A stretch of 26,721 nucleotides of DNA from Sphaerodactylus townsendi (Eukaryota), in NCBI RefSeq assembly GCF_021028975.2. It is one part of the record NC_059439.1 of this genome. One strand, 5' to 3'. Shown one piece after another: positions 10,614 to 26,611 of the stretch (positions are counted from its first letter, which is position 1; each line of letters starts with the position of its first letter). The position numbers and the translations under genes were made by a program. Under the pieces are notes generated by a model. It did not search any database, had not been told where the DNA came from, and saw only the letters and a program-made list of their open reading frames with translations.

Positions 10614-11675
10614 TTAGTCAAGCCCATCGCAACCTCCTAGCGGCTGTTCTTCAAGGATCACAGCGGCCCCTGGCACGACCACCACTGAGTCTTTGGCCAA
10701 GTTTTTCAACGATGGAGTTCTCTTAGCCAGCCCCTCAGATGCTCCCTCAAAGAACTGGGCAATGAAGTTGGCCCCCGAGGTCTTTATGAGGTTCCCGGCA
10801 GCAAAGACGTAAAGGACAGGGTTGATGCTACTACTTAAGAAAGCCAAGGCCGTGGCTCCCGCTCTCCCGCTCTTCCAAGCCTGGCTTAGCTGATCAGCGG
10901 TCTTCCCTGACGCCATGTTTGATGCCACCTGGATCATGTTCACCACGTGATAGGGCAGCCACAGGACAACGAAGCAGATCACTATGGCAACAATGAGCTT
11001 CTCGGTCCGAGCCCCTTGCCTTCTCCTCACCCCCCTGAGGCGTATCAAGATGGCGGAGTAGCACCCGAGGATGATGGTGAATGGGATCACGAAGGCCACC
11101 ACCGTTTCTAGGGTGAAATGGAAGATGGCCAGGCCCGGCCTGGTGTGGCAGGGTTCACAGATATGATGACCCAGGAAGGGATCCTTCAACACTTGGCGGA
11201 AGAGGAAGGCTGGGGCGGAGAGCATGCTGGCGGCCAGCCAAATCCCTGTCAGGATCTTGACGACCAAGTGCTTCTTGCGGATGGCTTGGGAGAAGTAGGG
11301 CTTGTTGACCGCGAGGCACCGGTCCACGCTCATGAGCGTGATGATGAAGATGCTGGCGAACATGTTGACGCAGCAAATGTAGTACACGCCTTTGCAAATG
11401 GCCGCCCCGAATAGCCAGTTCTTGAAGGTGAGGAAGAGGATGAAGAAAGGCGTCAGGAGTAGCACCACCCCGTCGGCCACGGCCAAATTGAGCACCAGGA
11501 TGCAGGTGACCGAGCGGTGGCTCGGTTTCATCTTCCACAGGATACTCCAGATGACAAAGAAGTTCCCTGGGAGGCCGATCAGGGCGGCCAAGAGGAGGAA
11601 GACGATCCCTGCGACGCTGGAGGTTGGGGAACTCAGGAGGGTGCTGTTTCCTGAGGTTTGGTTGCAAGGGTTCAT
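10614..11675 (-). CDS. LTB4R2: Leukotriene B4 receptor 2-like class A GPCR (353 aa, single coding exon)
   Basis: Seven hydrophobic helices with GLPGN, LAVAD, DRC, FVIPF, LWLPY and NPVLY motifs. The segments FLLLAALIGLPGN, K-VYY-C, LET--AFV-PF and RAG-TALAF-SSS-NPVLYVF-AG resemble mammalian BLT2 more than BLT1. ATG at 11675 in GCCATCATG context. N-terminal sequons NQT and NST. Confidence 0.88.
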   Translation of the reverse strand: MNPCNQTSGNSTLLSSPTSSVAGIVFLLLAALIGLPGNFFVIWSILWKMKPSHRSVTCILVLNLAVADGVVLLLTPFFILFLTFKNWLFGAAICKGVYYICCVNMFASIFIITLMSVDRCLAVNKPYFSQAIRKKHLVVKILTGIWLAASMLSAPAFLFRQVLKDPFLGHHICEPCHTRPGLAIFHFTLETVVAFVIPFTIILGCYSAILIRLRGVRRRQGARTEKLIVAIVICFVVLWLPYHVVNMIQVASNMASGKTADQLSQAWKSGRAGATALAFLSSSINPVLYVFAAGNLIKTSGANFIAQFFEGASEGLAKRTPSLKNLAKDSVVVVPGAAVILEEQPLGGCDGLD

Positions 11676-11703: not shown

Positions 11704-11730
11704 CTGTCAGAAAGGAGAAAGGCAAGAAGG
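11704..11730 (-). other. Splice acceptor for the LTB4R2-like coding exon
   Basis: The minus strand reads CCTTCTTGCCTTTCTCCTTTCTGACAG|GGC, 28 nt upstream of the ATG. This implies one or more upstream 5'UTR exons. Confidence 0.75.
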
Positions 11731-12057: not shown

Positions 12058-12892
12058 GAACATAAGAACATAAGAACAAGCAAGATGGATCAGACCAGAG
12101 TCCATCTAGTCCAGCTCTCTGCTACTCACAGTGGCCCACCAGGTGCCATTGGGAGCTCACGTGCAGGATGGGAAAGCAATGGCCTTCTGCTGCTGCTGCT
12201 GCTCCCAAGTACCTGGTCTGTTAAGGCATTTGCAATCTCAGATCAAAGAGGATCAAGATTGGTAGCCATAGATCGACTTCTCCTCCATAAATCTGTCCAA
12301 ACCCCTTTTAAAGCTATCCAGGTGAGTGGCCATCACCACCTCCTGTGGCAGCATATTCCAAACACCAATCACACGTTGCGTGAAGAAGTGTTTCCTCTTA
12401 TTAGTCCTAATTCTTCCCCCCAGCATTTTTAAGTGGATGCCCCCTGGTTCTAGTATTGTGAGAAAGAGAGAAAAATTTCTCCCTGTCAACATTTTCTACC
12501 CCATGCATAATTTTATAGACTTCAATCATATCCCCCCTCAGACGTCTCCTCTCCAAACTAAAGAGTCCCAAACGCTGCAGCCTCTCCTCATAAGGAAGGT
12601 GCTCCAATCCTTCAATCATCCTCGTTGCCCTTCTCTGCACTTTTTCTATCTCCTCAATATCCTTTTTGAGATGTGGCGACCAGAACTGAACACAGTACTC
12701 CAAGTGCGGTCGCACCACTGCTTTATATAAGGGCATGACAATCTTTGCAGTTTTATTCTCAATTCCTTTCCTAATGATCCCCAGCATAGAGTTTGCCTTT
12801 TTCACAGCTGCCATGCATTGAGTTGACATTCCCATGGAACTATCAACTAAGACGCCCAAATCCCTTTCCTGGTCTGTGACTGATAGCACTGA
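12058..12892 (-). mobile_element. Young CR1 LINE 3' fragment (frameshifted ORF2 C-terminus), nested in an older GTTGCCA-type MITE (~11952-12940)
   Basis: ERDLGVLVD...AAVKKANSMLGII...LYKAVVRPHLEYCVQFWSPH...LERRRLRGDMIEVYKI. (TTCTTATG)n tail. Confidence 0.95.
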
Positions 12893-13419
12893 TAAGACTG
12901 ATAGCATAGTGTCCACCCTCAAAGTCAGCCATTTTCTTCAACGGTCTAATTCTCCAATGATCTAACTCAGTGTAAGGCAGCTTCAAGTGTGCCCCAGAGG
13001 TAAGGCAGAAGTACCTAGGAGCAGTGAGGGAGGGAGCTCAGTGAAGATGCAGTGCCCACTGTCCACTCTAGGGCTTCTGTTATTCCTAAACTCAGTGGTA
13101 TACCATAGAGTCTGGTCTTTGAAGCTGCCATTTCCTCCAGGGGAACCAAACTCTGTAGCCTGGAGAGCAGTTGTAATTTCTCCAGAACTTCAGCCCTCCC
13201 CTGGAAACTCGGTAACTCATAGTTCAGCTGAAGGTGCCAAACCAAAAAGTGGAGTGGTTACATCACTTCTGAGCCCTTTGTGATCGCTACAAAACAACAG
13301 CACAAAGACAAAGTCTGTCATTTGAAGGGACGTGTTTGTCATGACCCAACCAGGATTGCTGAGGAAAAACATTGCAACATGCTAGTATAAAAGCTGAGGG
13401 TGTTGTAATTTGGTAATAT

Positions 13420-15586: not shown

Positions 15587-16200
15587 CAATAATCATCATC
15601 CTAACTCCGTCTGCCAATGGGGCCAGCGGGCATTCGTTCCGCTCGAGGGAGAAAAGACTTACATGAGGACCGACCGCTGTCTGGTGCAATCCGGAGAGAG
15701 GTTCTCTGGTCACCTCCAGCCTGTCATTCCCCTTCTTGGAGGAAAAGAAAAGTCTCCCTCTTTGAGAGTCTCTGTCCTGGATGCTTTGCACGTCTAGACT
15801 GGAAGCTGGAATGAGGTTGGGTAATGGAAGAGCAGGGAGGGGCCGGCAGGCTGGCTTTGGCACCGACCTCTGGGGTTTCAGTCACCACTCACATCTTGAC
15901 TTCCAAGTTGGGACTTGCTGGAGGGAGAAGGCCACACCCCAGTTGCTGAGTGGCTTGTGAGTCTCTGGCACAGCTCTGCCGTTCTTGTCGGATCCTTTCA
16001 TTCACAGAAAAGAACACGAGCCGTGCCCGGGATGGAAGTGGCTAGACCACAAGAGGATGGGTGCTCGGGGCTGATAAAAGGGCCCATCGGAACCATTGGG
16101 AGGAGGTGTTCTGGAATAAACAGACGACATACTGCAGCATGTAAGAAGAGCCTTGCTGGGTCAGACCAAGGGTCTGTGGAGTGCAGCCTCGTCGTTCTCA

Positions 16201-16335: not shown

Positions 16336-16656
16336 GGGTCCCGGGAAGGAGGAGGGGTGTGGCTGGACCTTGGCGCAACGTGTGCACGCCACCCAGGCAG
16401 GCCTTGGCCCAGGCACTGCACGCACGTTGCGCCGAGGCCCAGCTGTACCCCGTCTCCTTCCCTGAAGTGTGGGGGTGATTTTTCTGCCTTTATGTGACTC
16501 CCATGTGGGCACTTGAGGCGTTTGTATCCAGATGTCCGCATGGCAGCTACGCCACTGGCATACACCACATAGGTTACGTCTAGGTGCATCATGTACAAGG
16601 CAGAAGGATTGGATCCACCAAGCAAATACCCACCTGTGCCCGTTCCCTTGTGTTCC

Positions 16657-17421
16657 ATGGGAATGTCAACTCAATGCATGGCAGCTGTGAAAAAGGCAAA
16701 CTCTCTGCTGGGGATCATTAGGAAAGGAATTGAGAATAAAACTGCAAGGATTGTCATGCCCTTATATAAAGCAGTGGTGCGACCGCACTTGGAGTACTGT
16801 GTTCAGTTCTGGTCGCCACATCTCAAAAAGGATATTGTAGAAAAAGTGCAGAGAAGGGCAACGAGGATGATTGAGGGACTAGAGCGCCTTCCCTATGAGG
16901 AGAGGCTGCAGCGTTTGGGACTCTTTAGTTTGGAGAGGAGACGTCTGAGGGGGGATAAGATTGAAGTCTATAAAATTATGCATGGGGTAGAAAATGTTGA
17001 CAGAGAGAAATTTTTCTCTCTTTCTCACAATACTAGAACCAGGGGGCATCCATTGAAAATGCTGGGGGGAAGAATTAGGACTAATAACAGGAAACACTTC
17101 TTCACGCAACATGATTGGTGTTTGGAATATGCTGCCACAGGAGGTGGTGATGGCCCCTAACCTGGATAGCTTTAAAAAGGGCTTGGACAGATTTACGGAG
17201 GAGAAGTCGATTTATAGCTACCCATCTTGATCCCCCTTGATCTGAGATTGCAAATGCCTTAACAGTCCAGGTGATCGGGAGCAGCAGCAGCAGCAGGCCC
17301 TTGCTTTCCCATCCTGCATGTGAGCTCCCAAAGGCACCTGGTGGGCCACTACGAGTAGCAGAGCGCTGGACTAGATGGACTCTGGTCTGATCCAGCTGGC
17401 TTGTTCTTATGTTCTTATGTT
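16657..17421 (+). mobile_element. Young CR1 LINE 3' fragment flanked by a 34-bp direct repeat
   Basis: ORF2 C-terminus near-identical to the 12058-12892 copy. Tail TTCTTATGTTCTTATGTT. Repeat at 16623-16656 and 17422-17455. Confidence 0.95.
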
Positions 17422-18276: not shown

Positions 18277-18972
18277 GATCGGTCTTGCGCTCCCACCCCC
18301 TGAGAAGACTGATACACCGGAAAATATATCCGCTCGCATGGATATACACTGCCTAATTAAAAATCATTAAAGAAACTTTAATGGCCAATTGATGTAATTT
18401 CAATTCAAATTTATTTAAAATTACAGTCAGAGACCAGCACATACAAAGCCGACTGGTGGATATTACAAGTGTTATTAAAACCAATACAAGGTAAAATCGT
18501 TCCTTGTTAACCTAAAATTCACGATTACATTTCTATTTCTATGCTACAATTGCAAGTAAAACCAGTAAAGCTAAAATACCATTTAAACAATCCATAATAT
18601 CCTTAAAATTCAGGCCTAGTCATAATTTTTTTCTCTTTATTTTTACAGTACCCTGAAGCAAATTTGGCTACTGTTATTTCTTTGTCTGTTCCATTAACCA
18701 AAATTGAGATGACGGTTAGCCAACTGATGTATTAGTTCCCTCTAAGAAAAATCCATGATACAGAAAGTTTGTAGCCATGAACCAGCATCCTCAGACAAGT
18801 CTGAAGTGAGTATTTCATGCTCTAGGCGACGAGGACCCTTTTTTTTGTATTTCATTTTCAGCAAGACTTTGTGTCTATATGTGTGTAAAGCGTTGTCGAG
18901 TCCCAGTCGACTTCTGTTGACTCAGGAGAAAGTTAATGTGCAAGCTGGATTTGATAAATGAATGGAGGGATC

Positions 18973-19050
18973 TCACTTTGGCTGGATAGGAGTATATTGA
19001 GAATGTGAACGGACAGGAAATAGTTGATGACAATCATTCCTTTGGGAGAC
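18973..19050 (-). CDS. Ig-like receptor, candidate terminal cytoplasmic exon (VSQRNDCHQLFPVRSHSQYTPIQPK*)
   Basis: Acceptor TTGCTTTTAATCTTTTTCAG|GTC. Phase 0 matches the TM exon donor. Contains SQYTPI. Confidence 0.5.
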   Translation of the reverse strand, partial: VSQRNDCHQLFPVRSHSQYTPIQPK

Positions 19051-19562
19051 CTGAAAAAGATTAAAAGCAAGTGATTGAAGACCTCTGTCGATCCTATTAC
19101 AGGAATGAAATCTTATGCAATATCCTGACTTCTACATTCTCTGGGGTTGCCACTGCCTCCAGGTAATTCTCCAGGAATTGCAAATAAGCTCAATTCTACA
19201 CTGATCAGTACCCCTGGAGAAAATGGCAACTCCAGAGGATGGACTCTGTGGAATTACACCTCTGCTGAGCGATTTATCCTCCCCAAACTCTCCAGGTAAT
19301 GCCCCACCCCAAATTTCCAGGAATTCACCAAACCAGAGTTAGCCGCCCTGCAGGCAACCCACAGTTTGCTATGGCAATCCCGATGAATCAGCCCTTTTCA
19401 GAAAAACGACATCATGTCAAGCAGAGCCGGGGTTGTCTGAAGGAATACAGTGTACAGTTGAAACCAAAGTTAATTTGGCGATGAAGAACAGTTGGGGAGG
19501 GGGCAAACAGAGGTAGGCTGGGACTCAGGGTGGCTGGAAGCCACGCTGCCAATAGTGCACAC

Positions 19563-19967
19563 CAGTGGTGGGATCCAAAAATTTTAGTAACATGGTGGTG
19601 GGATTCAAACTGTGGCGTAGCACCAATGGGGCTGGGCGGGGCACGACAGGGGCATGGCCAGGCATTCCGGGGGTGGGGCATTCCAGGGTGGGGCTGTGGC
19701 AAGGATGCAGCTGCTGTGCCGGTCCTTGGGTCCTTAGGCGGGAAACAAATGCACGCAGGCGCAGGCTGCCACGCACGCCGGTGCACCTCCTGCTAGACGG
19801 CTTCAAGTTCTGTGCGCTACTGCTGAGAGGTGTGAGGGGGCGTAACTAAGGCAAAAACCACGGGGCAAAATCACCAATTGGGGTAACCCCCCCCTCGGCA
19901 ATGTAATATCACACAAATAATTGAAGTAACCCACTGAACCCAGAGAACCTGCTGGATCCCACCCCTG
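19563..19967. mobile_element. Non-autonomous hAT element
   Basis: TIR CAGTGGTGGGATCCA / TGGATCCCACCCCTG. Perfect 8-bp TSD GTGCACAC (19555-19562 and 19968-19975). Confidence 0.9.
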
Positions 19968-20247
19968 GTGCACACTTTAGATCTCACCTGCAGTAGGGTG
20001 AGGGTAGGTAAGGTTGCAGATTTGGGGAGGTGGACCCACTGGGGACAGAAGAGCGGGAGGTAGACAGTTCTGCTGCAGGGAGGGGCTGCCGCATAGCAGG
20101 AGAGCGCTTGTTTTGCCTGCAGAGGTTCCTAAATTCAATCTCTGCCCCCTTCAGGTGGTACAGTTTCAGGTGGTCAGTGCTGGAGAATGAAACCTCAGGG
20201 GAGCAGTTGCTGTTCAGAGAAGGGACTGATGTATAGGATGTGACTCA

Positions 20248-20764
20248 GGTCGATTCCGCACTTGCATTTATCGACCTAAGTTCGAGCTGCGTTCGGCCTA
20301 AGTGCTCCGCACAACCACTGGGATCGACGTGGTTTTGTACCAGCTTCGCTCCGTGTAACGGTCAAATTTCCGACTCCAGTTGGGAACTACTACTTTTTCA
20401 GGGAACCACGCTCGAACTCAGCTCGATTCCAGTAAAGTGCGGAATCTCTGGTGCCAGGAGTCCCCCATTCAGCCAATCACAGCTGAGTGTTTCGGGCATG
20501 CTACAGCCTAGGCCAATCAAAAAACGCCACCTTCGTCCCTCCATTCCTGTGGCAGTTTTTTTAATAACGTGTGTGGGGATAGACGGAACATGGCCGTAGA
20601 ACAGTAGCCAATCGGAACGGAGCGGCGAAGAGGTACAGGATGGTTCTGCCCTCCGAGCTGGGATCAAGCTGGTTGCAGTGGGGAACAACAATGGCTTCGA
20701 CCTAGGTCAGTACCCTTCTCAGGGAACTGGGTTGAACCTATTTTACTCATGTGCGGAATCGCCC
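20248..20764. mobile_element. Non-autonomous PIF/Harbinger-like element, CpG-rich
   Basis: TIR GGTCGATTCCGCAC / GTGCGGAATCGCCC. 3-bp TSD TCA on both sides. Shares the TTCCGCAC core with the 140-bp MITEs. Confidence 0.8.
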
Positions 20765-21067
20765 TCAGTGTCAAACAGTGTCAAATAGTGTCTTAGTCTT
20801 CATTCAGCACCCCATTTGAGCCAATCCCTGTTTCTGAGACGATCTCCTGTACAAACCCCGTTGGAAGAAACCACAACTTTCCTAATAATTTCAATTCACC
20901 TAGCCCCACTTTCAATAGTATGCACGTGTGTTTGGCCTTCCACCACCTGCACGGAAATGTTTTGGGCCAGCCCTGTGTGCTAATGTCCTCCTGCTTTGGT
21001 GTGGGGTGAGGTGAACTCTCAAACCTGAGTCATGGGGCTTCTATAGAAAACCCCAGAGAGAAGACCT

Positions 21068-21352
21068 GAGAGCCAGCGTGGGGTAGCGGTTAAGAGCAGG
21101 TGGATTTTAATTTGGAGAACCAGGTTTGATTCCCCACTCCTCCACCTGAGTGGCAGAGGCTTATCTGGTGAGCCAGATGTATTTCTGCACTCCCGCATTC
21201 CTGCTGGGTGACCTTGGGCTAGTCACAGTTCTCTCAGGATTACCTCACAAGGTGTCTGTTGTGGGGAGAGGAAGGGAAAGGAGTTTGTAAGCCACCTCGA
21301 GTCTCCTCACAGGAGAGAAAGGTGGGATATAAATCCACTCTTCTTCTTCTTC
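21068..21352 (+). mobile_element. Squam3-like SINE
   Basis: GAGAGCCAGCGTGG head and (CTT)n tail. Confidence 0.88.
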
Positions 21353-21358
21353 ACTTAC

Positions 21359-21453
21359 TTTTGGTAGGAAATAGTAGTGGGTGATTAAGAAGATGAGACC
21401 ATTGATGGTGAAGAAAGCCCCACCAGTGGCCATTATCCGTATCCAACTGATGC
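21359..21453 (-). CDS. Ig-like receptor transmembrane exon ((G)ISWIRIMATGGAFFTINGLIFLITHYYFLPK)
   Basis: Acceptor CTCTCTTCTCGCCACCTCACTAG|GC (phase 1, fits the preceding Ig exon), donor AAA|GTAAGT, hydrophobic helix. Confidence 0.72.
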
Positions 21454-21823
21454 CTAGTGAGGTGGCGAGAAGAGAGTTGCTGGTTATATGAGGTAAAGAA
21501 AAGCCGCCACATTTGTAACGTCTTCTGCTGAATGGGCCCAGGTGCCTTGACTCACCACGTCAGACTTGCAGACTCTAGTTCAATTCCCCCAGAGGCTATT
21601 AGTCATGGTTACGGAATCGCTTTCAGTGATTTACTGTCCTTATCTCACACCTATCTTTAGAAAATCTTGTGAGATAATTAGCTGGAAGCATCACGGGTTT
21701 CCTCCCCTCTCTCTCAGGCCCGCCAAATTCTGTAGAAAGAACGGCTTCATTCTTAAAGCGCAGAACTCCCTGCCTCCTAATGCAGTTCTGGCGGCTCATT
21801 TATCTTTAAACAAGTATTGAATC

Positions 21824-21944
21824 GGTTCTGGTGGGTTTTCTGGACTGTGTGGCCATGGTCTGGTGGAGATCCACCAGACCATGGCCACACAGCCTGGAAA
21901 ACCCACCAGAACCAGTTGAATCTGACCGTGAAAGCCTTCGACAA
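21824..21944. mobile_element. Short palindromic Penelope-like insertion, second subfamily
   Basis: 44-bp inverted arms 21824-21867 and 21870-21913. Same AAAGCCTTCGACAA terminus. ACAAGTATTGAATC is repeated at 21810-21823 and 21941-21954. Confidence 0.75.
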
Positions 21945-21970
21945 GTATTGAATCAATTAAAAGTAAAGTT

Positions 21971-22348
21971 AACATAAGAACATAAGAACAAGCCAGCTAG
22001 ATCAGACCAGAGTCCATCTAGTCCAGCTCTTTGCTACTCGCAGTGGCCCACCAGGTGCCTTTGGGAGCTCACATGCAGGATGTGAAAGCAATGGCCTTCT
22101 GCTGCTGCTGCTGCTGCTCCCGAGCACCTGGACTGTTAAGGCATTTGCAATCTCAGATCAAAGAGGATCAAGATTGGTAGCCATAAATCAACTTCTCCTC
22201 CATAAATCTATCCAAGCCCCTTTTAAAGCTATCCAGGTTAGTGGCCATCACTACTTCCTGTGGCAGCATAAGAAGTGTTTCCTTTTATTAGTCCTAATTC
22301 TTCCCCCCAGCATTTTCAATGTATGCCCCCTGGTTCTAGTATTGTGAG
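21971..22348 (-). mobile_element. CR1 3' fragment nested in the tail of a Sauria-like SINE
   Basis: Near-identical to 12059-12460, with a 28-bp internal deletion. Confidence 0.92.
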
Positions 22349-22614
22349 TTTCCCCTTCAGTTGTGTCTGACCCTGGGGTACCACTGCAGTGATTTTATTG
22401 GCAAGCCGTTTTTGTGGCGTAGTTTGCCATTGCTTTCCCCAGCTATTCTTTACCCCGTAGATATGAGCTAGGTACTCATTTACCGATCAAGAAATGGATG
22501 GATGGCTGAGTTGATCATGAGCCAGCTGCCAGGATATCTGACCCACAGGGGGCTCAAACTCCTGACCGTGTGAGTGGCAGTGCAAGCACTTAACCACTAC
22601 GCCACATGGCTCCT
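22349..22614 (-). mobile_element. Sauria-like SINE (tail remnant at 21960-21970)
   Basis: The minus strand reads GGAGCCATGTGGCGTAGTGGTTAAG...CAACTCAGCCATCCATCC...GGTAAAATGAGTACC...GCAATGGCAAACTAC. ATTGAATCAATTA is repeated at 21947-21959 and 22622-22634. Confidence 0.7.
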
Positions 22615-22690
22615 TGAATCAATTGAATCAATTAGTAGAGGACAAATGTTATGAATGTTCATTGGTCATGATGGCTAAAGGCAGTTCCGG

Positions 22691-22820
22691 GGCCCATTCC
22701 GCACATGCAGAATAATGCACTTCCAATCCACTGTCGCAATTGTTTGCAAGTGACTTTTGCTATTCCACAAAACTGCAGAATGGATTGAGAGTGCATTATT
22801 TGGCATGTGCGGAAGGGGCC
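22691..22820. mobile_element. Harbinger-like MITE
   Basis: GGCCCATTCCGCACATGC...GCATGTGCGGAAGGGGCC. Confidence 0.85.
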
Positions 22821-23043
22821 TGGGTTTCACAGGGGCTGTGTCATTCACATGGTTTGGTCACACCCCCACTGTCCAAGCAGGGCTAGAGAAAGCTTGCTCT
22901 TCCCAGAACTACAGGGGGCCGCCCTTTCCCTTCCCCTCCACTTTTTATAGCCCTGCATCCGAACAGGTCGCTGTGTTTTGGAACAGCTAGCAGGGAGAAA
23001 CACCTGTTGCCCCTCCGTTGGGCAACAGAATGTGGGATTAGAT

Positions 23044-23563
23044 CAGTGATAGCGAACCTTTTCGAGACCGAGTGCCCAAATTGCAACCCATAACCCACTT
23101 ATTTATCGCAAAGTGCCAACACGGCAATTTAACCTGAATACTGAGGTTTCAGTTTAGGAAAAAACGGTTGGCTCTGAGGCGCACGTTACTTGGGAGTAAG
23201 CTTGGTGGTAGTCGGTGACTTTGCTTTGAAGCAACCATGCAACTCTTCCAACGGGTGAATCATGACCCTAGGAGGGTTTACTCAGAAGCAAGCCCCATTG
23301 CCAGCAACTGAGCTTACTCCCAGGTAAAGGATCATGCTTTAGTTCTTCGCGTGAAAATCAGTGGGGTTTAACAGCGCTTGACAGGGTTACCTACACTGCT
23401 TCCCCAAAACTAGGTCTTAAATTTAATGCGAATAATCGAGCCCAGAGGCCCAGGGCAACCTAGATGTGTGGGCGGGGGGGGGGGGCGACTCTGTTTGCGC
23501 GTGCCGACATAGAGGGCTCTGAGTGCCACCTCTGGCACCCGTGCCATAGGTTCGCCAGCACTG
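23044..23563. mobile_element. Non-autonomous hAT element inserted in an old CR1 3' end
   Basis: TIR CAGTGATAGCGAACCT / AGGTTCGCCAGCACTG. Perfect 8-bp TSD GATTAGAT (23036-23043 and 23564-23571). Confidence 0.9.
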
Positions 23564-23729
23564 GATTAGATGGACCTTTGAATTCATCTAGCAGGGCTAT
23601 GCTTATGTGCTCATATCCACCACTAAATGGAAGCAAGACTTGGAGCACAGAGGAGCAGGAAGTTGGGAAGGCAGGGCAGAAGGAAGAAAAATACTCTCAG
23701 GAAGTGGTCAGGGGTGACCCATAACTTAC

Positions 23730-24035
23730 CTGCTGGCTCAATGAAGACAGGGTCACTCTTCTTAGAGCGGACATTTCGCCCAGAACGAAACTGGATATAG
23801 GCACACATGAAATTCCCTGTATCTTTTGGCGCTGTGATGTTCAGGTTGTACATGTCAGTTGTGTTAGTATCTTTTGGGGACTTCCAAGCCTGGATGGTCT
23901 GCCTGTCTCCAAAGTACTGGAATTCCGTGATGTTGGTCTCTCCAGGTGGAGCGGAACACACCAGAGTTACATGGTCTCCCCACGTATACCGCGGGAGTGC
24001 TTGATTCAGAGAGAGGGATGGTTTTTGGGGTGCTT
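23730..24035 (-). CDS. Ig-like receptor, membrane-proximal C2-type Ig domain exon
   Basis: Acceptor CTTTCTCTCTTGCAG|AA and donor CAG|GTAAGT, 306 bp, phase 1-1. Reads (E)APQKPSLSLNQALPRYTWGDHVTLVCSAP...YNLNITAPKDTGNFMCAY...SKKSDPVFIEPA, with both Cys and the D-x-G-x-F-x-C motif. Confidence 0.88.
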
Positions 24036-24098
24036 CTGCAAGAGAGAAAGGACTGGGTTTTTTTTCCCTTGTAACGCAAAATTATTTTTTGGCTCCAA

Positions 24099-24385
24099 GG
24101 AGCAGCAGTGGCGTAGGAGGTTAAGAGCTTGTGTATCTAATCTGGAGGAACCGGGTTTGATTCCCAGCTCTGCCGCCTGAGCTGTGGAGGCTTATCTGGG
24201 GAATTCAGATTAGCCTGTACACTCCCACACACGCCAGCTGGGTGACCTTGGGCTAGTCACACCGGGCTTCCTCAGAGCTCTCCTCAGCCCCACCCACCTC
24301 ACAGGGTGTTTGTTGGTGAGGGGGAAGGGCAAGGAGATTGCAAGTCTCCTCTGCCTGAAGCCCCAGCAGGAGGAGAAAAGGGGGA
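24099..24385 (+). mobile_element. Squam3-like SINE, second subfamily
   Basis: GGAGCAGCAGTGGCGTAGGAGG head. Runs into a gap. Confidence 0.88.
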
Positions 24386-25117
24386 NNNNNNNNNNNNNNN
24401 NNNNNNNNNNNNNNNNNNNNNNNNNNNNNNNNNNNNNNNNNNNNNNNNNNNNNNNNNNNNNNNNNNNNNNNNNNNNNNNNNNNNNNNNNNNNNNNNNNNN
24501 NNNNNNNNNNNNNNNNNNNNNNNNNNNNNNNNNNNNNNNNNNNNNNNNNNNNNNNNNNNNCATGACCGAGACCTGGACAAGGAAAGGCAAAACCGTCGCC
24601 TTAAGAATGGAATGAACTCGTGTCTGGTTTGTGACACAATGTCCTTTCTAGTGGTTGCTTCCTGCTCCGTATGCCTGCAGAACTCTTTCAAAAAGATTCA
24701 CCCTTTCTGCCTTGAAGTAGCTGATTTGTAGCCCAAGTGTACCAACCAGCTGCGAGAGAATTTGAAAGCTTCAAAGGCAGGCCAGAGCGGCGGGACGACA
24801 TGAACCGGTCTTTGCTGCCACCCTGTGGCTCATGTATACTCTCACCAAGCTACACCCCTCTCCTTTTCTGCAATTTCACCACCAGCGGCTTGCTAATAAC
24901 GAAAACAGAAGTTGCAACAAGTAATTTTGGGTCTGAGGGGCCAGGAATCTCCCCCAACATCAAAGTGCTGAGAGGGAAACTTTTACTTTCTCTGTGGAAG
25001 GCTGGCAGCGCTACGAGACAGAGAAAATACCTAACCTCACTCTGCTCCTCTTCAGCAAATTGTTTTTTTAGCATGAATGGGAAGAAAGGGCAGGACTAGG
25101 GGCTGATCCAAGACAGA

Positions 25118-25420
25118 CCCAGCGTGGTTCAGTGGTTAAGAGCAGGTGGATTCTAACCTGGAGAGTCAGCTTTGATTCCTCACTTCTCCACCCGAGTGGC
25201 AGAGGCTTATCTGGTGAACCAGATGTGTTTCTGCACTCCCACATTCCTGCTGGGTGACCTTGGGCTAGTCACAGTTCTCTCAGAACTCTCTCAGCTCCCC
25301 CCCCTGACCTCACAGGGTGTTTGTTGTGAAGGGGGAAGGGAAAGGAGATTGTAAGCCCCTTTGAGTCTCCTGACATGAGAGAAAGGTGGGGTATAAATCC
25401 AAACTCTTCCTCTTCTCCTC
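25118..25420 (+). mobile_element. Squam3-like SINE
   Basis: CCAGCGTGGTTCAGTGGTTAAGAGCAGG head and CT-rich tail. Confidence 0.88.
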
Positions 25421-25477
25421 TCAAAAAAGCCTTTATGAGGATTTTTTTCAACCCCTTAGTTTGGCACAAATTTGGCC

Positions 25478-25740
25478 AGGAGGAGGAGGAGGAGGAGGAG
25501 GAGGAGGAGGAGGAGGAGGAGGAGGAGAAGAAGAAGAACAGGAGGAGGAGGAGGAGTTTGGATTTATATCCCCCCCTTTCTCTCCTGCAGGAGACTCAAA
25601 GGGGCTTACAATCTCCTTGCCCTTCCCCCCTCACAACAAACACCCTGTGAAGTGGGTGGGGCTGAGAGAGCTCCGAGAAGCTGGGACTAGCCCAAGGTCA
25701 CCCAGCTGGCATGTGTGGGAGTGTACAGGCTAATCTGAAT
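25478..25740 (-). mobile_element. 5'-truncated Squam3-like SINE with an expanded (GGA)n/(GAA)n tail (25478-25556)
   Basis: The body matches 17992-18175. Trinucleotide repeat tail. Confidence 0.88.
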
Positions 25741-26003
25741 GCAGGAGTTTGTAAGGAGACTCACCAGCAGCTATGCTGCAAATTTGGTGCCTCATGAGGC
25801 AGGTCTACCGGAGTTTTGTCCCCTTCTTGGTCACCCACCAGCTTCTACAGCAACAGCAGTAGATTTTGGGTTGCAGGGGGTCATATTTGGAATCCTAGGG
25901 CACACTTTTAATACAATCAGGAATACCCAAGGTAGACTAGCAAAGGGGTTTGGGATAACTAGGTTGCTTGGATTTACCCTTGGCAAACATCCTGGATTAA
26001 TGC

Positions 26004-26275
26004 ATTGTCGAAGGCTTTCACAGCCGGATTCAACTGGTTCTGGTGGGTTTTCCGGGCTGTGTGGCCGTGGTCTGGTGGACCACGGTTTGATTTTCCCATT
26101 CTGCCACTTAGCTGTGGAGGCTTATCTGGGGAATTCAGATTAACCTATGCACTCCCACACACGCCAGCTGGGTGACCTTGGGCTAGTCACAGCTCTTCGG
26201 AGCTCTCTCAGCCCCACCTACCTCACAGCGTATTTGTTGTGAGCGGGGAAGGGAAAGGAGTTCGTAAGCCCCTTC
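26004..26275. mobile_element. Penelope-like terminal fragment (26004-26079) fused to a Squam3-like SINE body (26081-26275)
   Basis: ATTGTCGAAGGCTTTCAC...TCTGGTGGA matches the reverse complement of 21870-21944. The sequence then continues as SINE from the B box. Confidence 0.75.
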
Positions 26276-26317
26276 TGAATCATTCCACTCTTCTCCACCA
26301 GTGTAGGGGGCACCCAC

Positions 26318-26611
26318 CTGTCACTTCCAAGGTGATCTCTTCGCTTCGCTGAGATCGGACCTCTTCGCTAGCATTCCACTTCCAGTATTCACAGCTGAAA
26401 GTTTCATTTTTCTCCTTTTGAACAGAGACGTACAGCGAGCTGCTCCAAAAGCCAATCACATTTACCTGGGACATCACAGACCCACTCTTGTCAAAGAATC
26501 TGTATCCGTTCACCTGCTCTTTTATCTTAGCAGTACAACTCAGCTGTACCTTTTCACCTTCATAATACTGGTGATGTTTGGGAGACACAGAAATTTCAGG
26601 GGGAGATAGTT
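26318..26611 (-). CDS. Ig-like receptor, upstream C2-type Ig domain exon
   Basis: Acceptor TCTCTGTTTCTTTTCTGGAAG|AA and donor CAG|GTGGGT, 294 bp, phase 1-1. Reads (E)LSPPEISVSPKHHQYYEGEKVQLSC...ETFSCEYW...SQRSEEITLEVT. Confidence 0.85.

Follow-up and report, generated by a model that had tools for sequence, protein, structure and literature searches.

Two transmembrane (TM) signatures have been published for receptors that couple to FcR-gamma: NxxR, for receptors of the leukocyte receptor complex (LRC) and of Xenopus, and (M/L)Fxx(D/N)TxL, for classical Fc receptors (FcRs) (PMC2413239, PMC6557307; statements citing PMC records hold throughout for the parts of those papers that were available). 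As means of docking, the outer Arg and the FxxD/NT core have been assigned to different TM classes (PMC2413239). In CD89, an Arg close to the helix top couples to the Asp pair of FcR-gamma, and FxxDT or FxxNT in the lower half of the helix couples CD16A, CD64 and Fc-epsilon-RI (PMC13107469). A short tail with a charged TM is the hallmark of activating paired receptors (PMC2413239, PMC3601082). Here, we analyzed a window of 26,721 nucleotides (the whole stretch of DNA under study) from record NC_059439.1 of the gecko Sphaerodactylus townsendi (assembly GCF_021028975.2), which carries on its minus strand a gene for an immunoglobulin (Ig)-like receptor. Its predicted TM matches neither published signature yet carries part of each, a CD89-like outer Arg and a CD64-like FxxN. 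On balance, the gene probably encodes an activating receptor of the short-tailed type that would couple to FcR-gamma, with a tail motif resembling an immunoreceptor tyrosine-based inhibitory motif (ITIM) derived from a lineage-specific extension. Paired Ig-like receptors are an already known kind and a gene model exists; what merits pursuit is the hybrid type of TM and the family that carries it.

Gene model and membrane helix

The features of the gene, numbered from the first letter of the window, are:

26611-26318, minus strand: exon of Ig domain 1 (D1), 294 nt, phase 1-1; Pfam Ig_2 E 4.5e-7; residues identical to RefSeq
24035-23730, minus strand: exon of Ig domain 2 (D2), 306 nt, phase 1-1; Pfam Ig_2 E 1.9e-7
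21453-21359, minus strand: TM exon, 95 nt, phase 1-0; W229-x-R231 at the outer end, GG, core F240-x-x-N243
19050-18973, minus strand: last coding exon, 78 nt, phase 0, 25 residues and TGA; contains the loose ITIM-like SQYTPI
18636..18641, minus strand: candidate poly(A) signal AATAAA, about 330 nt past the stop

Judged from their predicted junctions, the four exons are real and form a type I membrane protein with two Ig domains. An AG stands at every acceptor, with 15-16 pyrimidines among the 19 preceding bases in the four exons, and the predicted donors of the first three read GTGGGT, GTAAGT and GTAAGT. Joined, the exons give a frame of 256 amino acids with 0 internal stops in the order Ig-Ig-TM-tail, and the two Ig exons score 30.4 and 31.6 bits against a curated Pfam Ig_2 cut-off of 27. 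A first-pass annotation of the window had placed four minus-strand exons here with canonical splice sites and phases 1-1, 1-1, 1-0 and 0-stop, and we verified both the coordinates and the stop-free frame. The motifs it had read in the Ig domains, namely P-x-I/L-S starts, an aromatic strand (YRFF, FQYF) and S-x-x-S-E/D ends, were present in the translation, WIRIM, FFTINGLIF and SQYTPI lay where it had put them, and its several N-glycan sequons came to five (N94, N105, N158, N181 and N189). It had also called the gene hidden. The same 256 residues form residues 27-282 of RefSeq XP_048372742.1 (P0005), named 'uncharacterized protein LOC125444375' from S. townsendi, and because this existing model is identical the gene is uncharacterized, not hidden.

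Contigs of four of eight listed runs were compared with the region 18600-24150, with the junction between the two Ig exons outside it; the 15 contig joints listed, of 3660, all lay inside repeats. In one run, X4, pieces covered 18858-19050 and 23729-23978 and ended at predicted splice sites, with depth present at 19026-19030 and none at 19063. Since this was a single run whose kind is not on record, with no joined contig among those listed, it was not counted as support.

We call orthologues the members of the gecko receptor's clade of squamates, turtles and birds (see below), in which certain species have two copies. Arg231, eight residues before FF, and Asn243 were both invariant (27 of 27 orthologue records), with the adjoining Trp present in 26 of 27, which bears out the earlier description of a polar TM in an uncharacterized LRC/FcR-like Ig receptor. 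Across the wider polar-TM class, which includes caecilian P0053 and alligator P0044, 50 distinct TM strings were compared, of which 47 have the Arg and 48 the Asn. Median identity to the gecko sequence was 68% in the TM core, 47% in D2 and 33.5% in D1 (n = 22), and the conserved TM stretch reads GG-S/A-FF-x-I/L-N-x-x-I-F.

Under the reading that we favor, the product would be an activating leukocyte receptor that signals via an adaptor bearing an immunoreceptor tyrosine-based activation motif (ITAM), most likely FcR-gamma. Clustering by ligand would recruit the adaptor dimer through Arg231, F240-x-x-N243 or both. Phosphorylation of the adaptor ITAMs would come next and, as ITAM phosphorylation does, would lead to activation of the Syk family. 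Inhibitory, ITIM-bearing paralogues would counterbalance such a receptor, and our guess at its ligand would be a self or pathogen surface protein, not IgY.

Several properties of the same helix weigh against coupling to FcR-gamma. The first-pass annotation had likened the Arg to the NLIRM type; its place near the outer TM end stands, but its context is not NxxR, as the gecko sequence reads S-W-I-R, and NxxR occurs in three of the 27 orthologue records and two of the 50 TM strings. The other signature, (M/L)Fxx(D/N)TxL, was found in 0 of 27 orthologue records, the gecko F-F-T-I-N-G-L-I retaining FxxN alone. Of 48 strings, 33 have Gly, 10 have Ser and one has Thr immediately following the Asn, and Thr after D/N belongs to the CD16A contact (PMC13107469). 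The residue after the Arg is acidic in 31 of 50 TM strings (Glu 24, Asp 7) and could neutralize it. Arg231 lies one residue ahead of the most hydrophobic 19-residue segment, which starts at 232, and beside a Trp, so that it may be a mere interface anchor. On an ideal helix, Arg231 is turned by 120 degrees relative to Asn243 and by 180 degrees relative to Phe240.

Part of this evidence would suit a conserved TM that pairs with some other partner, whether CD3-zeta, DAP10/DAP12, a subunit with several membrane passes such as Fc-epsilon-RI beta, or a second copy of itself via the GG/Asn face: the conserved stretch is longer than a single basic contact needs, both FcR-gamma signatures fail, and Arg and FxxN occupy different faces of the ideal helix. 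Such pairing is nevertheless unlikely, given that a helix-top Arg and a lower-half FxxN are each known gamma/zeta contacts (PMC13107469) and that the gecko TM lacks a DAP12-type Lys at its center. The TM alone returned 0 PDB sequence matches and ESM Atlas rows all below 0.8, and a homodimer prediction for D2 plus TM, in which the alignment was not used, scored 0.00, which is no evidence either way. In Mauremys, P0215 reads F-F-V-I-N-T-L-I, a true FxxNT as in CD64, plus the outer Arg.

Relatives and paralogues of the gecko receptor

Relatives were gathered by three homologue searches and one search of 1.84 billion representatives, the last giving 177 matches at E 0.001 (150 listed). Family members among the matches listed came from geckos, other lizards, snakes, birds, turtles, alligators, caecilians and one frog. 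A tree of 36 chosen rows was rooted at its midpoint without an LILR or FCRL outgroup and built on the last 215 residues before the TM, an alignment that mixes domain types in the paralogues. It placed the gecko receptor inside a two-Ig clade of squamates, turtles and birds (support 100/99), with geckos grouped at 100/100 and branch lengths of 0.32 for S. townsendi and 0.33 for Eublepharis. The gene had been described earlier as a receptor in lizards; as turtles and birds fall in the same clade, it is not limited to them, and a duck orthologue was found (P0018). Going by sequence relationships, the gecko gene belongs to a wider family of paired Ig receptors in tetrapods. The sole mammalian match among 73 was a musk-deer protein (E 4.8e-10, 19% coverage, 19% identity by hhalign) with Tyr motifs that we label as resembling LILR; the homologue search scored the best 8000 candidates, and loss in mammals is not to be inferred from it.

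The paired nature of the family is seen in its tails and helices. The ITIM consensus, often as two motifs, occurred in 29 of 66 other TM-bearing matches (family domain score of at least 60), a set that includes four polar-TM proteins missed by the motif anchor, and the family contains ITIM-bearing paralogues with an uncharged TM together with the polar-TM class. A single 14.76-Mb contig of Pelodiscus holds 15 of the 73 matches, polar-TM and ITIM-bearing types both present. Several turtle families have a paralogue group in which a polar Arg/Asn TM is joined to a tail of 62-64 residues with SDYYSV. This group comprises nine rows (P0232-P0235, P0240, P0242, P0243, P0245, P0247), or 17 records counting isoforms, and falls outside the gecko receptor's clade in the tree. 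On its predicted sequence, the turtle SDYYSV paralogue makes a stronger candidate for a dual-type receptor than the gecko gene does. Homology between the gecko tail and the SDYYSV tail was rejected, as 298 shuffles scored as high among the 900 sequences that received a score.

Database names for these proteins are scattered and misleading (FCRL5-like, A1BG-like, IGSF1-like, peroxidasin-like), and our finding flags a paired receptor family dispersed under them. Some models are fused, P0216 with an olfactory-type seven-transmembrane domain, P0266 (Anolis) with a vomeronasal receptor and P0238 (Malaclemys) with an ASPP2-like protein, which hints at the genes neighboring family members. The P0184 cluster of Alligator sinensis has a submitted GenBank accession, QKE59414.1, and may therefore have been annotated in some study. 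Limited searches of the open-access literature returned no description of the family or its TM, much subscription comparative immunology (ggFcR, chicken FcR/L, Xenopus KIR-related) lying outside them, and the available parts of PMC4646688, PMC13337447 and PMC4016189 do not describe the family. The painted turtle genome has 35 putative natural killer (NK) Ig-like receptors (PMC4054807), which may overlap the gecko receptor family; two supplements of that paper, searched by term, do not list the 35.

Cytoplasmic tail and alternative products

The gecko receptor has a tail of 32 residues with one S-x-Y-x-x-I motif, SQYTPI, 25 residues beyond the TM, which the first-pass annotation had taken to make it possibly bifunctional if Arg and Tyr motifs were conserved in orthologues. 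The Arg was (27 of 27), but the Tyr motif was found in one of the 27 records, that of S. townsendi itself, and in none of the other 26. As the motif is not conserved, the bifunctional reading is not supported and the claim of a dual receptor in this single gene matters little. In 22 of the 27 records, the orthologue tail is no longer than 20 residues. The tail starts of Eublepharis and Paroedura resemble that of S. townsendi, which supports use of its last exon, and stop after six or seven codons. The comparison suggests that Sphaerodactylus extended its tail relative to the models of other geckos, and SQYTPI is probably a chance product of that lineage-specific extension. Among 16,141 overlapping stop-free stretches of 25 codons in non-coding parts of the window, 353 (2.2%) had a loose ITIM and 9.8% had YxxI/L/V; the loose-ITIM rate was 3.5% among tail shuffles.

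Some points tell against a chance motif. The rate of 2.2% is low; in a related organism about 95% alike, the motif keeps Ser and Tyr, with Ile changed to Val, on the differences listed (40 of 322 difference rows and 12 of 27 indel rows); and all orthologues are gene predictions, in which short tail exons are poorly predicted (PMC6557307). A functional dual receptor, coupling to FcR-gamma and recruiting SHP-1/2 via SQYTPI at least in Sphaerodactylus, would draw on the low chance rates, on the fit of SQYTPI to the loose consensus at its distance from the TM, on the Ser and Tyr kept in the related organism, and on the turtle paralogue, which shows that a polar TM and a Tyr tail occur together in the family. 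We nonetheless consider it very unlikely. Besides being missing from every other orthologue record, SQYTPI does not fit the stricter L/VxYxx consensus, and the long tail of CHIR-AB bears two ITIMs (PMC3601082). All five changed tail codons in the rows listed for the related organism alter the residue, three of them within the motif and none silently, and no homology was detectable between the gecko tail and the turtle Tyr tail.

The gene might instead be impaired in this species or mostly make another product, through a missing signal peptide, a read-through tail or a secreted form that skips the TM. The N-terminal 26 residues of the RefSeq model are indeed not signal-like (best 9-residue hydropathy 0.99 versus 2.1-3.2 in seven orthologues). 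Skipping of the TM exon (23730 to 19050) shifts the frame to a stop after five residues and would yield a secreted two-Ig form, and a TM-less isoform is modeled in Eublepharis (P0168). A repeat at 21245-21358 of the window on the minus strand, which we take to be of the short interspersed nuclear element (SINE) type, begins a few bases past the TM donor; if that donor were left unspliced, read-through into the repeat would give 37 residues with the consensus ITIM VAYKLL, which by accident fits the ITIM consensus better than SQYTPI does. We give this alternative hardly any weight, since the four exons are open and have good splice sites, the branch is similar in length to that of Eublepharis, and the several assembly gaps within the window make a mis-modeled 5' end easy. 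Because its first 26 residues are unlike a signal peptide, the RefSeq 5' end is probably mis-modeled, the true 5' exons probably lying outside the window. Of the signal peptide and further domains that had been predicted past the right edge, the signal is still expected; more Ig domains are unlikely, because full-length orthologue models have just a signal peptide before Ig1. Isoforms of Paroedura differ by 13 residues, which implies, at the level of protein models and outside the window, a second signal exon of 39 nt.

Neighborhood and place among known receptor systems

One neighboring gene was found in the 26.7 kb; it shares the strand of the Ig gene and lies about 7 kb downstream of it:

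10614-11675, minus strand: intronless open reading frame for a BLT1-like (leukotriene B4 receptor 1) protein, 353 aa, E 3.7e-72 to BLT1

The BLT1-like gene may also have a 5' non-coding exon, to judge by two sites read by eye, one acceptor-like near 11706 and one donor-like near 15663. Similar 3' fragments of reverse-transcriptase-like sequence, presumably of CR1-type long interspersed nuclear elements (LINEs), lie at 12407-12907 (minus), 16591-17160 (plus) and about 21960-22340. The LRC is flanked by TTYH1, LENG8, RPS9 and TSEN34 (PMC6557307), and FCRL genes are linked to SLAM/CD2, IGSF9 and DUSP23 (PMC2413239), none of which last group was in the 26.7-kb window. The available parts of these two papers do not name a BLT1-like gene among those that flank the LRC or FCRL loci.

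Searches by sequence and by fold gave different nearest families. The top PDB sequence match was human FCRL5, with a best single stretch at i-E 5.4e-9, whole-protein scores being sums over repeated domains; classical Fc receptor domains matched weakly (E about 0.02-0.05). A fold search with a model of the Gekko kuhli orthologue (mean predicted local distance difference test [pLDDT] 80, TM pLDDT 55-65) gave CHIR-AB1 at Z 13.4 (root-mean-square deviation 1.9, 91 aligned), tied with PirB (13.1) and LILRB4 (12.6), and placed FCRLA (10.7) and FCRL5 (9.8) below the LILRs. Foldseek did not separate LILR from FcR, with E from 4e-10 to 4e-8 across both. Identity to members of known families was about 20-30% by sequence and 15-25% in structural alignments. 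The nearest ESM Atlas feature clusters were HIDE1, Allergin-1 and PECAM1 at 0.95-0.96, and because these top rows are tied the Atlas names no family. Pfam PF17737 (Ig_C19orf38) matched D2 at E 0.0037 and 18 bits, below its cut-off of 23.2, and was unlisted for whole P0005 at E 0.01. In its predicted working, the receptor resembles the activating LRC/FcR type, its membership of LRC or FCRL not being established by these sequence and model comparisons.

Ancestry is a question separate from mechanism. The family may be no more than an offshoot of the LRC or FCRL families that has diverged and that genome surveys have already counted, a possibility we rate somewhat short of even. The FCRL5 sequence match, the CHIR-AB1, PirB and LILRB4 folds, the 35 painted turtle receptors (PMC4054807) and database names such as FCRL5-like, A1BG-like and IGSF1-like would agree with it. 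Set against it are the low identities, the disagreement of sequence and fold over which family is nearer, a TM that fits neither family's signature, and the BLT1-like neighbor, absent from the flanking genes named in PMC2413239 and PMC6557307 as far as these were available. More doubtfully, the gene could be a conserved framework member of an overlooked tetrapod complex of paired receptors that lies outside the LRC and FcR loci and has grown in turtles and shrunk in squamates and birds. Such a complex would be defined by a third kind of adaptor-coupling helix, in which an outer Arg of the LRC type is combined, from caecilians to birds, with an FxxN core like that of classical FcRs. If this were true, the helix could be a relic linking the two known modes of FcR-gamma assembly, and birds in which no CHIRs have been found could draw on the complex for activating Ig-like receptors, possibly ones for IgY; CHIR homologues were not found in the duck (PMC3601082, available parts). 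The innate receptors of reptiles are thinly described, and a TM with features of both docking modes, nearly unchanged across tetrapods, offers a direct mutational test of how the two are related.

Among the systems compared, HIDE1 (C19orf38), Allergin-1/MILR1 and PECAM1 are alike in their nearness in the ESM Atlas and in the weak Ig_C19orf38 match of D2. The lower-half F-x-x-N of the gecko TM resembles the FxxNT of CD64 among the classical activating FcRs (CD64, CD16A and Fc-epsilon-RI alpha), whereas the gecko family has Gly or Ser in place of Thr and adds an outer Arg. Dual-type receptors are known, KIR2DL4 being one. Like CHIR-AB, the gecko receptor combines a charged TM with a Tyr motif, in this species; the long tail of CHIR-AB has two ITIMs (PMC3601082), whereas the gecko tail has one weak motif that recurs in no other orthologue record. 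FCRL5 and XFL share the Y-x-F-F/Y strand that replaces Trp, Ig exons of phase 1, and paired activating and inhibitory forms. However, activating TMs of XFL are of the NxxR type, with TM and tail in one exon (PMC2413239), whereas the gecko TM and tail lie in separate exons. Signal peptide exons of 30 and 21 bp typify FCRL/XFL, although only a fraction of XFL genes obey this; their second signal exon of 21 nt (PMC2413239) compares with an apparent 39 nt in the gecko family. From the activating LRC receptors (LILRA, CD89/FCAR, GPVI, OSCAR, NKp46) and CHIR-A, the gecko family differs in having no NxxR, an added core FxxN and a BLT1-like neighbor. With them it shares two C2-type Ig domains, nearest in their modeled fold to CHIR-AB1, PirB and LILRB4, a TM Arg at the outer end, short orthologue tails, ITIM-bearing paralogues and, as the Paroedura isoforms would indicate, a signal peptide apparently split over two exons.

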